Below, piece after piece: positions 21,801-29,504 of a DNA stretch of 32,912 nucleotides (position 1 is the stretch's first letter; every line of letters starts with the position of its first letter). The position numbers and the translations under genes were made by a program. Source of the stretch: Squatina squatina (lineage: Eukaryota); contig JARFOE010000168.1 in NCBI GenBank assembly GCA_031763465.1, forward strand, positions 8,447,137 to 8,480,048, written 5' to 3'. Below the pieces are notes generated by a model. The model searched no databases. It saw nothing but the letters and a program-made list of their open reading frames with translations, and was not told the DNA's origin.

Positions 21801-23145
21801 GTGTTTGGTCCACCCACTGTGGTTTCTGGGTTGCCATGGTTTCCATTGTGAGGTCAGGTTACATAACACCTCAGTTGTGATGTGGCCCTGGGTCATGTGC
21901 CCATATAAGTCTTGTCCGTTGTTTGTGGCAGTTTAAGGTGTGTGGTGGGTGGTGGGGGTAAAGGCCCAGACCCGAGATACAGACCATACGGACAAGGCAA
22001 CATTTGTAACCTTTGGCAGCCATGTTGGATTGAGCAGCTGTTTGTTCCTAATAAAGAACCAGTGCACCCCAGGCTCTCAAATTACATGTGACAAAAGGTG
22101 CAGAAACGGGGGTGTAGGACAGACATTTCTAGCAGAATTGCCCCCAAATTTGGATATTCATCTGACTCAAATCAATTTTGGATACACTAGAAATAANNNN
22201 NNNNNNNNNNNNNNNNNNNNNNNNNNNNNNNNNNNNNNNNNNNNNNNNNNNNNNNNNNNNNNNNNNNNNNNNNNNNNNNNNNNNNNNNNNNNNNNNATAT
22301 AAGGCAAGTATGATTTGAACAGATGCCATTTGTATGAAGGATTATTTTAAACCTAGAATCTTCTGAGTGGAGTCTCTATACAATACTGGTTTAGCAGACA
22401 TTTTGAAACTGTAGTGTTGGCTTCTGTGTTGCTCTGATCTGCTGTTTTCTTTCAGATCGAGAAAGACTTGAACTTGGCTGGCTTTGGAAAACACGTGAAG
22501 TGCAGGGTGCAAAACACAATAGTAGGACTTGAACCTTAAGCCTTTCTCCCACGTAAAGCTTAGCATTTAGGTATTTAAAAAGCACGCACATTTGAAAGTT
22601 GGGAAATGTGGGGAAGCAGCATGATGTCATTGTCCAATGGTTGGAGTGGGCAGCGGGAGAGGGATAGAGAAAAATCTTTAACCCTTTCTTTGGCATATGC
22701 TTGTTAGGTTTGGGGAAGTTGCTTTTGAAATTGTTAAAATTTCAGTGTGATAAGCTGATTTGTGAAAGAGAAAAGTATCTAACTCAAACTTGAATGGTTT
22801 AACCCTTTTTCCATTCATTGCTAAATTTTAAATGGTTCAAAAGTATAATTAATCCCAACTAATAATTTGGAATGAAAGAAATATTACTGTTACTTTGGTT
22901 TGCTTTTTGAAAAGTTTGCCAACATGTTTTTTTCCTGTCATTGTTACTGGTGAAAAAGATCATTGGAAGAGCTAGCTTTGACTAAGGTTATAAGAGACCT
23001 CCAGACTCTCAATTTCCAAACAATCCTTCACTATCTTCTTCCCATCACTAATTCATTTTTAGCCTTTTATTCACAGAATAGCTTTAATCTAGATCATCTT
23101 ATACTTAGTGGCAGCTGGGGGGAGAAGTTCATCAGATAACATGCT

Positions 23146-26184: not shown

Positions 26185-26282
26185 GCACCACTACTATGCT
26201 TGCTGGCTTCTCCTTTTTGGATTTCTCCTTGACCTGGCTGATGGAGCTGTTGCTAGACAACTTAATGCGTGTTCTGCTCTTG
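26185..26282 (+). CDS. TMEM269: TMEM269 internal exon (98 bp, phase 2-1): HHYYACWLLLFGFLLDLADGAVARQLNACSAL(G)
   Basis: ttgttccatag| acceptor and G|gtaagt donor. The peptide aligns with recalled human TMEM269 (HYASRMLLVSFLLDMAVRAMTSHINICSKLG); frame continues into the next exon. Confidence 0.9.
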
Positions 26283-26433
26283 GTAAGTTAAGACTTCAAC
26301 AGGCATGCAGACCTTTCAACAATACTGNNNNNNNNNNNNNNNNNNNNNNNNNNNNNNNNNNNNNNNNNNNNNNNNNNNNNNNNNNNNNNNNNNNNNNNNN
26401 NNNNNNNNNNNNNNNNNNNNNNNNNNNTTACAG

Positions 26434-26577
26434 GAGCCAAGTTGGATGATTTTGCAGATTTCACAACATTTGGAATTGCAACCTCACTGTTGCTTCAGGC
26501 CCATGGCATACTAGACAGTGTGTTTGTCATCTGCTATGTGATGGCTGTGTTTGCACGCCTCTGCTTTTTTTCTAGTG
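26434..26577 (+). CDS. TMEM269: TMEM269 internal exon (144 bp, phase 1-1): (G)AKLDDFADFTTFGIATSLLLQAHGILDSVFVICYVMAVFARLCFFSS(G)
   Basis: ttacag| acceptor, G|gtaaga donor, open hydrophobic frame not shown in the ORF track. Matches recalled human AELNDFAVFTTFGLASALLL...LCFYS. Confidence 0.92.
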
Positions 26578-27336
26578 GTAAGAATTCACTTTCTTTGGTC
26601 TATGAATAGTGAGGGATTACTGTTGGTACTGAGAATTCAAATATTTTCCTAGTTTACATGGGTCATATGCAATGCCAGTGGCTGATATTTTTCACATAAA
26701 AATCACCAAATAGAGTTTATTTCAACTACTAGAAGATATTTAATTGTTTGTGCTGTCATGGTACATGATTGAGCTCTAGTAGTGTCATGAAGTAGCACAA
26801 CGCAGGTTAATCTTGCACTCTGCAGAGTTCCCAGCTGCACGGCAGTGAGGAAGCATTGCATCAGGGTTAGAAGGGAAAGTTGTTACATGACACTAACTGT
26901 TGCACACTTCTAAGGTTCTGACTCGAGAGTAATATAAGGCAAGTCCTGGCCGTAAGTCACTCATCCTCTCATCCTTTTGGTAGCAAGAGACTAATGGTTT
27001 ATTGTTGCTGCTTTAATTGAGTTTCTTACCCTGCATGGCACATTACAAAAAAAATATACTGCAACAAACAGAGGGGCAGAGTGCAACAAAATATTTGTGA
27101 TCATGAAATAAATGGGAAGGCGGTCTTTATACCTGTTACCCAAATGTCCATGTTTTGTACTCTTGCAAATGCCATTTTAGCGCCCCTGCCTGCATTTTGT
27201 TTTTCCTTAAATTGTTTAAATAAAAGTAGCAATTTTGAAAACTCATCCTTTAGTCTGTCTGCCCCAGAATTCTAGCTGTTGATATTAGTGATTTCCAGGA
27301 TGACATTAAGGTCTATCGGTACTAATTTTCTTTTAG

Positions 27337-27532
27337 GAATCCCATTCGTCTACCGTGGCCTACCATGTCCTTATGCCTCAGCCATCCTAGCCAGCACCTC
27401 TCTCTTGACTGGAGGCAATCGCTTCCTCCTGTATATTGTTGCAGTAGTGATGATCCTCTTCATGACTGACCAAGGCAACTACCCTCATGACAAAGTCCTG
27501 GAGTCACAGCTCTGGAAAAAAGCAGTTTTCAC
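27337..27532 (+). CDS. TMEM269: TMEM269 exon truncated by a gap: (G)IPFVYRGLPCPYASAILASTSLLTGGNRFLLYIVAVVMILFMTDQGNYPHDKVLESQLWKKAVF
   Basis: actaattttcttttag| branch point and acceptor; phase compatible with the previous exon. Near-identical to recalled human GLPCPYASCILASTSLLTKGNRF...MILFMMDQSYYPYDKILES..WKK. Confidence 0.93.
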
Positions 27533-27914
27533 NNNNNNNNNNNNNNNNNNNNNNNNNNNNNNNNNNNNNNNNNNNNNNNNNNNNNNNNNNNNNNNNNNNN
27601 NNNNNNNNNNNNNNNNNNNNNNNNNNNNNNNNCAGTTGTAGTTGAGAGTTCAGAATCTAAATCACTGACACACAGACAAATTAGCATATGTGACATGTCA
27701 CTGGCATGTTTGACCACCTTCGACTGATGGCTTGAACCAGTCTACAAATCGTAACTAGTCCAGAAGGAAATAAGTAGCTGTCCTGCAAAAGACAGTGGTA
27801 TCCAGAATCTATACAGTACCCATTCCCATTGCGCACCCATATTACATCTCAGTGACTTGGATCCGACTGAACTGTGTCCCTGCCTTCCCAGCTGAACAGC
27901 TTTCGTGTACTCAC

Positions 27915-28132
27915 ATGTCACTCTTCTCTGTGATTGGCCGCTTCATGATCCTCTCCGGTGCGAGCCATTTAATGGGAACCTGGACTGCTTTGTGGGACGA
28001 GAGAGTTCCGTTTCTGTAAACATTGAAAGCCAGACTCAGGCCAGCGAGCTTAACAGTCAGATCTTCATGGATCAGAATATTCCGGGCAGCAACATCCCCA
28101 TGGATTAGTCTGTGCTTTGTAGTCAGATAATC
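27915..28132 (-). CDS. STYK1/NOK-like tyrosine kinase, catalytic-loop exon (218 bp, phase 0-2)
   Basis: Minus strand ggaacag|DYLTTKHRLIHGDVAARNILIHEDLTVKLAGLSLAFNVYRNGTLSSHKAVQVPIKWLAPERIMKRPITEKSD(AT)|gtgagt. HGDVAARNIL, absent DFG and KWLAPER are STYK1-family hallmarks; the phase-2 intron after SD is typical of tyrosine kinases. Symbol withheld because it may be a paralog. Confidence 0.92.
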
Positions 28133-29278
28133 CTGTTCCAAATGGACAGACAGGTTGAATAGTGTTTTGGATGCACAGTGTTTAAAGTCTTATTCAACTG
28201 GGTTTTAATAAGAATGCAACTGCGATTCTGTTGAAGAAACTGAATAACAGTTAATCTGCGGATGACACCAAGAGGTGGAATTTCTATTCCCTCTCAGTGA
28301 CCAGCTTATAGCAGTTATTTCATCAAAAAACTCCAGCTATCACATAAACAACCAAGATACTAAAGAGGTTTTGTCCCAGAAAACCTTACGCTAACTAATT
28401 CTGAAACTATTGTAAGCTATAATAATGATATACAAATTGTCAGTGGATTTATTCTATTAATCTGACTCAGTCACAACAGCTTCATATTTCTGCATAAACA
28501 GAACAAATAGAATGGAGAAACATTTTTTGGAAGGCAGAAAAGAAATACGAAATGACATTTCTGTAAATGTTTCTTATCAATTTTTCCCCCACTCCCCCCA
28601 AAATACGGCAGTTCTCTCCTCAGGTGAATTGACCGACAACTTAATGCAACTGGGACTAGAATCTGAACTCTGATCATCTCGCCAAGTTCAGTGGGCTGTA
28701 ATCCTGGCAGATGTCACAGCAAGAGACATTTTGTGGTCTCCGAGCAACTCAATGTCACCCAGTGCACCGACATGATGCCAAAAGTATCTAGGTTGCTCTC
28801 TGGGGATACAACCACACTGCCAAAGTGCAACTATTCTGATTTTTTTCCTGGAGATTTCCCTTCTATTCAGAAATACAACAAATAATTGGACAAATTGGAC
28901 TTCCTCCATTAACATAACCGTACATAGCCCATGATTGAAGGAGGATATATTACATGATCCATAAATGTAAAGGGTAAATCAGAATATGGAAACTGTCGAG
29001 ACATCTCCTGCATCTGTAGAAAGCAAAATCCTTGCCAGAATTCCTTTAAAGTGGCATTAATTATTGGCCTCTTATCCAAAATGCAATGCAGCTTCACTCC
29101 ATTCAGGATTAAAGGTCAAAAACCCAAGAGAAGTGCTCAGAAATTCAATCTCATTTCACCATATTCACTGATCTAACCAAGGCCTTGGGTGTCAAGAACA
29201 GAGTCAAGTCAAGCTTTGGATGCCCTCGTGTGAGCAGTAGTATCTGAATTATTTTACCATAACTCAGCAAAGATGCAA

Positions 29279-29504
29279 CGATTCCTGACTCCGAGTGTGT
29301 CCGATCCCTGACCCCGAGGGAATGCGATCCCTGAACCCGGATGATCCGATCCCTGACCCCAGAGGCTCCGATCGCTGACCCCGAGGGAGTCTGTTCCCTG
29401 ATCCCGGTGTTCCGATCCCTGATCCCGGAGGAGCCTGACCCCTGCACCCAGGGGAGCCCTATCCTTGACCCCGGGGCTCCGATCCCCGACCCCGGGTGAG
29501 TCTG
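29279..29504. repeat. GC-rich degenerate minisatellite, 21-24-bp unit, about 10 copies
   Basis: Recurring core CGATCCCTGACCCC followed by variable GAGGGA/GGATGA/AGAGGC tails; runs into a gap. Confidence 0.9.

Follow-up and report, generated by a model that had tools for sequence, protein, structure and literature searches.

The window analysed here is the whole stretch of 32,912 nucleotides (nt) of Squatina squatina DNA (contig JARFOE010000168.1, positions 8,447,137 to 8,480,048), and the gene under study is TMEM269, three exons of which (A, B and C) lie on the forward strand and encode an intact signature of the cytidine diphosphate (CDP)-alcohol phosphatidyltransferases (Table 1). Once spliced, these exons were open in only one of the three frames, yielding 145 amino acids (aa), with AG and GT at the splice ends wherever these could be read. 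The exact pattern D-x2-D-G-x2-A-R-x8-G-x3-D-x3-D (its aspartates numbered D1 to D4 below) was found in this frame, as an earlier note on this DNA had claimed, with the glycine codon divided by the first intron; the motifs DFTTFG, ARLCFF and YRGLPCP were also present in the spliced peptide. The gene name proposed in that note was borne out by comparison with a sawshark TMEM269 record, to which exons A, B and C were 94-98% identical (98% for exon C, which has one match within its own genome).

The joining of the exons in the predicted frame was confirmed by a 925-nt contig from run X1, in which both predicted joints are seen exactly, the 151 and 759 nt between them being left out at GT..AG. This contig differs from the window by 14 letters in 438 aligned and therefore comes from a related organism. 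It runs on into the last exon of TMEM269, located on a separate unplaced contig (G000:C489092), and its loose end reads into the upstream exons (residues 1-58), for which no exons were found in the window or in the assembly; the scaffold stretches neighbouring the window are mostly N. The splice evidence comes from one contig of one study, and the kind of run is unrecorded for X1, as for run X2, contigs of which cover a probable first exon. The domain had been thought to be hidden by the splitting of its motif, but exon A by itself passed Pfam PF01066 (31.7 bits, E = 2.3e-7; gathering cut-off 22), as did the full-length ortholog P0001 (59.7 bits), and public records already carry PF01066.

Two trivial explanations were considered and rejected: an artefact or pseudogene, on the basis of the open frame, the canonical joints, the spliced contig and the synonymous nature of five of the seven differences listed, and bacterial contamination, on the basis of the introns and the identity to shark orthologs. 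Several database isoforms of TMEM269 skip exon A or B, and skipping would take away half of the active site. Two fish TMEM269 contigs from metagenomes (L008, 1874-2359; L009, 1048-1533) carry exon B, exon C and the last exon in joined form, with intron-like sequence before exon B.

Table 1. TMEM269 features in the Squatina squatina window (residue numbers from the 241-aa ortholog; MjPSS, M. jannaschii phosphatidylserine synthase).
Feature	Position	Strand	Evidence and details
Probable upstream or alternative 5' (first) exon	22452..22570	+	22 of 24 residues shared with a catshark TMEM269 isoform at its N-terminus; X1 and X2 contigs cover it; joint to exon A not seen
Exon A, residues 59-91: end of helix 2 and D1, D2, G, A and R of the signature	26185..26282	+	AG before, GTAAGT after; Pfam PF01066; joined form in X1 contig
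CDP-alcohol phosphatidyltransferase signature, spanning intron 1	26231..26459	+	D1 26231-33, D2 26240-42, R 26255-57, G 26282/26434-35, D3 26445-47, D4 26457-59; aligned to MjPSS Asp41/44/62/66
Intron (GT..AG) with 100-N gap at 26328-26427	26283..26433	+	151 nt skipped in X1 contig
Exon B: helix 3, which holds D3 and D4, and helix 4, which includes R-L-C-F-F	26434..26577	+	Frame, ortholog match, X1 contig
Asp96, at the place of the serine-contacting Ser63 of MjPSS	26448..26450	+	176 of 177 covering rows have Asp, the other has Glu
R-L-C-F-F: Arg132 (MjPSS Arg101, essential) and Phe136 (Phe105) kept; Phe135 for Arg104	26556..26570	+	Alignment to MjPSS
Intron (GT..AG)	26578..27336	+	759 nt skipped in X1 contig
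Exon C: helices 5-6; Y-R-G-L-P-C-P 27351-71; Y-P-H 27480-88; L-E-S-Q-x-W-K-K	27337..27532	+	Ends in N gap 27533-27632; His189 in 184 of 184 rows

We investigated the conservation of the signature in 184 vertebrate TMEM269 proteins, the named ones coming from sharks, rays, a chimaera, bony fish, coelacanth, amphibians, reptiles and birds. Monotremes, lampreys and hagfishes were not represented among the sequences identified. The strict pattern occurred in 160 of the 184 proteins, the other 24 being partial, exon-skipping or intron-retaining models. As the 160 rows of the conservation table were chosen by the motif, which is circular for the aspartates, the aspartates were counted in all 184 rows. 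D3 and D4 were Asp in 177/177 covering rows, D1 in 166/169 and D2 in 167/172, and the exceptions at D1 and D2 were five bird models without a real exon A. Arg132 was found in 176/176 covering rows, position 136 was F or Y in 160/160 rows, and His189 replaced Lys157 of MjPSS throughout. The four aspartates, R82, R132 and H189 were invariant from sharks to birds. The active-site aspartates are thus kept in every clean non-mammalian model examined, and the conservation predicted for other fish extends through the non-mammalian jawed vertebrates.

The family best matching TMEM269 was the NCBIfam model pssA (TIGR00473), which came first for all five orthologs scored (63.2-68.4 bits). The pgsA and ClsA models gave 13-21 and 21-27 bits, respectively, on the same orthologs, far from the cut-offs of the two families (109 and 240 in all), and the Pcs models gave at most 28 bits (cut-offs 350-440); the signature spacer is x8 in TMEM269 and longer in Pcs. 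Conversely, a TMEM269 profile applied to 46-residue core windows scored 21.9-39.1 bits on 14 of 15 PssA sequences (16.9 on the other, a mis-cut window), 7-17 bits on PgsA and 6.2 bits on Pcs, and 14.1, 10.5 and 9.5 bits on the shark's own CDIPT-, CEPT- and CRLS1-like exons, which lie at other loci. All 20 plasmid matches were weak, and the 16 with a listed annotation were all named phosphatidylserine (PS) synthase; look-ups in the Atlas returned TMEM269 clusters and one archaeal PssA cluster only. The closest solved relative by sequence was MjPSS (E = 4e-5 with a single sequence, 9e-9 with a profile).

The predicted structure was consistent with these results. The AlphaFold model of TMEM269 (predicted local distance difference test, pLDDT, 74) has eight helices, and a Foldseek search with it returned MjPSS chains only at E≤0.001. 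The comparison with an archaeal PssA envisaged in the earlier note identified MjPSS as the best fold match (VIA Z 19.2, 191 residues, root mean square deviation 4.3), ahead of PIPS (Z 11.2), PgsA (10.2) and CHPT1 (6.3). A homodimer was also predicted, with a score of 0.45 versus 0.00 for the best of three controls, at least 97% agreement of contacts between runs and a pLDDT of at least 72; 21 of 30 solved homodimers and none of 23 monomers attained the mark used (17 of 29 and none of 30, respectively, for eukaryotes). The modelled interface comprises helices 1, 3 and 4, as in MjPSS, and the pass may reflect memory of the MjPSS structure. Profile, sequence and modelled fold therefore support type II PssA as the probable nearest characterised relative of TMEM269. 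Taken with the conserved aspartates, they suggest that non-mammalian TMEM269 is very probably an active CDP-diacylglycerol (CDP-DAG) enzyme.

The origin of the gene was explored in a profile search of 1.84 billion representatives, from which the following figures cover the best 150 of 6980 hits. Within this set, named jawed-vertebrate TMEM269 was matched by 101 hits at 55% identity or more and by the other 49 at 42% or less; one hit carried a eukaryote-collection label. No invertebrate animal, cyclostome or fungus was recognised among 30 identifiers looked up by name (29 from these 150), several of which were nameless. The closest non-vertebrate match, P0250 (E = 1.7e-25), and its relative P0336, the only sequence returned by a search with P0250, share D-D-x-A-D-F and L-E-S-Q-x-W-K-K with TMEM269. 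This pair was sister to TMEM269 in three trees (Shimodaira-Hasegawa approximate likelihood ratio test, SH-aLRT, 96; 99/94; 99/94), with P0270 and P0322 branching next outward (63; 99/96; 99/96), although long branches meet in this part of the trees. The 98-row mixture-model tree has SH-aLRT supports only, from an incomplete search, and leaves out P0326, which had no motif match; of the others, one is a 61-row subset and one was estimated after seven outgroup or long rows had been dropped, with a bootstrap not fully settled. TMEM269 grouped with PssA apart from PgsA and Pcs in the 98-row tree (SH-aLRT 94), but Pcs fell inside PssA in the 61-row tree, and nesting with canonical PssA was not rejected by the approximately unbiased test (p-AU 0.084). 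No relative was found in scans of viral contigs. Either acquisition from a microbe or retention accompanied by many losses may account for this distribution.

One of these relatives is a fusion: P0270/P0335 (ENA, 608 aa) joins an alanine/serine-racemase-like domain to a PssA-like domain placed near TMEM269 in the trees. The racemase-like domain has Gln at what we take to be the position of the lysine binding pyridoxal phosphate, and a D-serine lipid pathway or a binding domain is possible.

The nature of the acceptor depends on the pocket. The residues that hold serine in MjPSS are Asp62, Ser63, Asp66 and Phe105, and R101E abolishes activity, whereas R104E halves it (PMC8633023). In Candida albicans Cho1, the R186A, L187A and F190A mutants are reported to be nearly dead, and R189A raises the Michaelis constant (Km) for serine from 8.4 to 28.9 mM, leaving partial activity (PMC8727905). 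Three essential residues of this R-L-A-R-F motif (Arg, Leu and Phe) are present in TMEM269. The resemblance to PssA motifs described in the earlier note was real, as far as DFTTFG, ARLCFF and YRGLPCP are concerned, but incomplete at Ser63 and Arg104, replaced by Asp and Phe, and in its profile score.

Bacterial relatives altered in a similar manner were identified with the pattern D-D-x-A-D-F, which retrieved proteins fusing a PgsA-like half to a PssA-like half. A metagenome scan yielded five loci, three fish-like TMEM269 pieces and two bacterial fusions, and a genome scan yielded six bacterial fusions. Among 81 Desulfobulbia genomes, 66 had a canonical pssA, 14 had a fusion only and one had neither; PS decarboxylase was present in all 14 fusion-only genomes and in 80 of the 81 overall, and E. 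coli-type PssA was found in none of the 81. The nine phospholipase D (PLD) proteins of four fusion genomes comprised eight that were cardiolipin-synthase-like and one without a family. Eleven of 14 fusion C-halves had Asp63, six of them with Arg104 and five with R-L-[IV]-Y-F (an aromatic residue at 104), which is close to the R-L-C-F-F of TMEM269; the other three had Thr63, likewise without Arg104. Serine can be considered the likeliest acceptor for TMEM269, because these similarly altered domains are the sole PssA-like enzyme in several genomes with PS decarboxylase. The simplest reading, by analogy, would be that the fusion C-halves supply PS, in which case a pocket like that of TMEM269 can accommodate serine. 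In Desulfobulbia (L013-L018, L116-L133), the tandem fusions were of at least three subtypes, largely standing in for canonical pssA, and one of them has an N-half motif that looks degraded. No published assay of such fusions was found in the titles and abstracts searched; phosphatidylethanolamine (PE) has been reported in three Desulfocapsaceae strains, which are not tied to an enzyme type and were not used as support.

Several observations nevertheless weigh against TMEM269 being a PS synthase. The pssA scores of 63-68 bits are far below the curated cut-off of 107. Ser63 is replaced by Asp, Arg104 by Phe and Lys157 by His; Ser63 and Arg104 are absent from every TMEM269, whereas both were found in 30/30 of the PssA sequences above the cut-off that were read. 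These pocket changes are, from the alignments, the main evidence against phosphatidylserine as the likely product. The bacterial argument is one of co-occurrence in related genomes, some of them incomplete, and the fusion may have another job: in two of the 66 Desulfobulbia genomes with canonical pssA, a fusion is found as well and, in the family of G001, five of 23 canonical-pssA genomes carry both, 26 of 51 genomes have a sub-cut-off match only and two of 51 have none. Finally, the shark genome already has two base-exchange PS-synthase loci, and may not need a TMEM269 enzyme. Given the two changes at serine residues and the score below the cut-off, TMEM269 is best described as a PssA variant for which serine would be the likeliest acceptor, and we consider the chances about even, by analogy with its relatives, that it makes phosphatidylserine de novo from CDP-DAG and L-serine.

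The trees also bear on PgsA. A clade of TMEM269 and PgsA was not rejected (p-AU 0.68), the tree constrained to it was 12 log units better than the free tree, and the tree is unreliable at its root, a further point against the assignment to PssA. This clade, together with UniRef and Atlas names (the automatic UniRef name is "cardiolipin synthase (CMP-forming)"), would be in keeping with a second cardiolipin synthase or phosphatidylglycerophosphate (PGP) synthase. We regard such an activity as highly unlikely, and the UniRef name as not supported: the ClsA and PgsA models scored 13-27 bits versus 63-68 for pssA, TMEM269 has D-D-F-A-D in place of the D-P-[LI]-A-D of PgsA and the shark CRLS1-like exon (elsewhere in the genome), and its modelled fold matches the eight-helix PSS rather than the six-helix PgsA.

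A different small acceptor for an active CDP-DAG phosphatidyltransferase (ethanolamine, choline, D-serine or threonine, giving PE, phosphatidylcholine (PC) or a minor amino-lipid) is a possibility that we entertain tentatively, with less confidence than serine. Both altered residues contact serine or affect its Km, and the changes are fixed in all non-mammalian TMEM269; with an extra acid (Asp96) and an arginine lost to Phe135, the pocket would be suited to an amino alcohol that lacks a carboxylate, or to a serine variant. His189 is equally fixed, Asp96 is kept even in mammals (12/12 covering rows), and the nearest relatives in the trees are environmental proteins, one of them the racemase-like fusion. 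By contrast, the known PC synthase scored lowest of all on the TMEM269 profile (6.2 bits), similarly substituted bacterial domains replace pssA in genomes with PS decarboxylase, and two of ten other pssA-like loci also lack Ser63.

In mammals, the signature has decayed. The comparison covered 17 named mammalian TMEM269 proteins, from placentals, opossum and sugar glider (the model for the last of these does not reach the motif). In placentals, D1 was kept (15/15), D2 was Val or Ile (15/15), D3 was Asn (11/11 covering rows) and D4 was Val or Ile (11/11); opossum TMEM269 had Ser at D1 and D2, kept D3 and had Glu at D4. The human motif given in the earlier note, DMAVRAMTS, was read in two non-human primates. 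That note placed the decay to a pseudo-enzyme in the human lineage; the loss of catalytic aspartates in mammals was confirmed, but a human-only loss was rejected, as all placentals examined and opossum share it. Since placentals replaced three aspartates and opossum a partly different three, the decay appears to be therian-wide. A single early loss of D2 followed by separate decay would fit the sequences as well as two independent losses. Mammalian proteins retained 81-91% of the other invariant columns and only 44-72% of those in the motif region. The loss thus appears to be focused on catalysis, common to the placentals examined and, in a marsupial, due in part to different substitutions, and therian TMEM269 is probably the same fold persisting as a pseudo-enzyme. 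Of 13,332 proteins, human TMEM269 was the one on which variant-effect predictors agreed least (bioRxiv 10.64898/2026.03.18.712765), which would fit a human protein diverged in function from its orthologs.

The high retention of the other columns after the loss of the aspartates implies a non-catalytic use of the fold, and raises the question of whether TMEM269 is a CDP-DAG- or lipid-binding regulator in all vertebrates, with aspartates kept for binding and mammals further along the same path. The papers found on TMEM269, which contain no assay, are also compatible with this. We judge it unlikely, given the invariance of the four aspartates, R82, R132 and H189 from sharks to birds and the preferential decay of the motif region in mammals, the pattern expected when catalysis is switched off.

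Under the preferred explanation, an active enzyme using serine, TMEM269 would be an eight-helix, dimeric, Mg2+-dependent membrane protein moving the phosphatidyl group of CDP-DAG to L-serine, beside the base-exchange enzymes. By comparison with MjPSS, D74, D77, D95 and D99 would coordinate a pair of metal ions together with the CDP phosphates, R82 would bind phosphates, R132 and F136 would line the acceptor site, and helices 7-8 would enclose the acyl chains. Serine might still be the acceptor despite the changes at Ser63 and Arg104, although the comparison suggests this more weakly. A broader scenario, which we consider doubtful as a whole, is that jawed vertebrates have a microbial-type CDP-DAG synthase from a non-canonical PssA donor, making PS or an undescribed amino-lipid in fish, amphibians, reptiles and birds and conserved as a pseudo-enzyme in therians.

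The surroundings of the gene provided several further observations. A tyrosine-kinase-like domain exon (27914-28186, reverse strand; Pfam PF07714, E = 1.7e-17) faces TMEM269 about 380 nt beyond exon C. At the places where HRD and DFG are usual in kinases, it has H-G-D-V-A-A-R-N and K-L-A-G-L, which suggests a STYK1-like atypical kinase. A GC-rich degenerate tandem repeat (29290-29500), with units resembling CCGATCCCTGACCCCG, adjoins an N gap, and an exon about 20 kb past the window (L093, 9635-9841, reverse strand) is one that we take to be USP48-like. Some bird gene models (among P0093, P0154, P0170 and P0214) fuse TMEM269 to an elastase-like gene, and a mole-rat model fuses it to ERMAP; these merged models hint at a change of the TMEM269 neighbourhood in mammals.

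A PssA-like label for TMEM269 is already public in databases and two papers, without an assay. Several database records are named CDP-diacylglycerol--serine O-phosphatidyltransferase. A study of sole larvae refers to tmem269 as a protein "with phosphatidyl serine synthase activity" and found its expression raised when the diet was low in phospholipid (PMC7569605), and the passages and supplement searched of that paper contained no assay of it. A review of antifungals gives TMEM269 in a table as the counterpart of CHO1 in humans, yet says that CHO1 has no human homolog (PMC11993586), and a salmon study describes TMEM269 as poorly characterised and down at 20 C (PMC13142024). We count these dietary and temperature responses in fish in favour of the preferred explanation. 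Our literature search, with most subscription journals outside its coverage, returned no assay of TMEM269 and no account of its mammalian loss or its origin; the loss in mammals is apparently undescribed in the literature found. In the standard account, drawn from mammals and fly, animals make PS by base exchange and yeast makes it via CDP-DAG (PMC6946173), and the absence of Cho1 from humans is the reason given for promoting it as an antifungal target (PMC11993586, PMC8727905). If TMEM269 is active, PS or a related lipid could also be made de novo, by a second route, in most vertebrate lineages, and the base-exchange rule based on mammals would reflect a loss. Mammalian TMEM269 would provide a natural inactive control, and for a human membrane protein there would be a fold, CDP-DAG as a likely ligand and the hypothesis of a pseudo-enzyme.

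Among known systems, TMEM269 is a member of the superfamily like type II PssA that lacks two PssA features, a score above the TIGR00473 cut-off and the Ser63/Arg104 pair. MjPSS (PDB 7B1K/7POW; PMC8633023; type II PssA, TIGR00473), its top PDB match by sequence and fold, shares the x8 signature spacing, Ala59, Arg101, Phe105, G-L-P, the predicted eight-helix fold and the predicted helix 1/3/4 dimer. It is only about 24% identical and differs at Ser63, Arg104 and Lys157, and TMEM269 has a longer N-terminal helix, a spliced vertebrate gene and an activity that is predicted. Fungal Cho1 of Candida albicans shares the CDP-alcohol phosphotransferase (CAPT) motif and three of the four tested R-L-A-R-F residues (R186, L187 and F190), whereas R189, tied to the serine Km in the work cited above, is Phe in TMEM269. 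The fusion C-halves of Desulfobulbia and other bacteria, with Asp after D3 in many, His after Y/F-x and, in one subtype, R-L-[IV]-Y-F, are placed on the same side of the PssA-like tree as TMEM269 (82/96), but they are joined to a PgsA-like half and the grouping is not significant versus nesting with canonical PssA (p-AU 0.084). CDIPT, CRLS1 and CEPT1/CHPT1 have the superfamily signature in common with TMEM269 and occupy separate loci in the shark genome. PTDSS1 and PTDSS2 (PF03034), by contrast, of which the shark genome has both kinds, constitute an unrelated family using PC or PE rather than CDP-DAG, and would yield the same product as TMEM269 if the preferred explanation holds.

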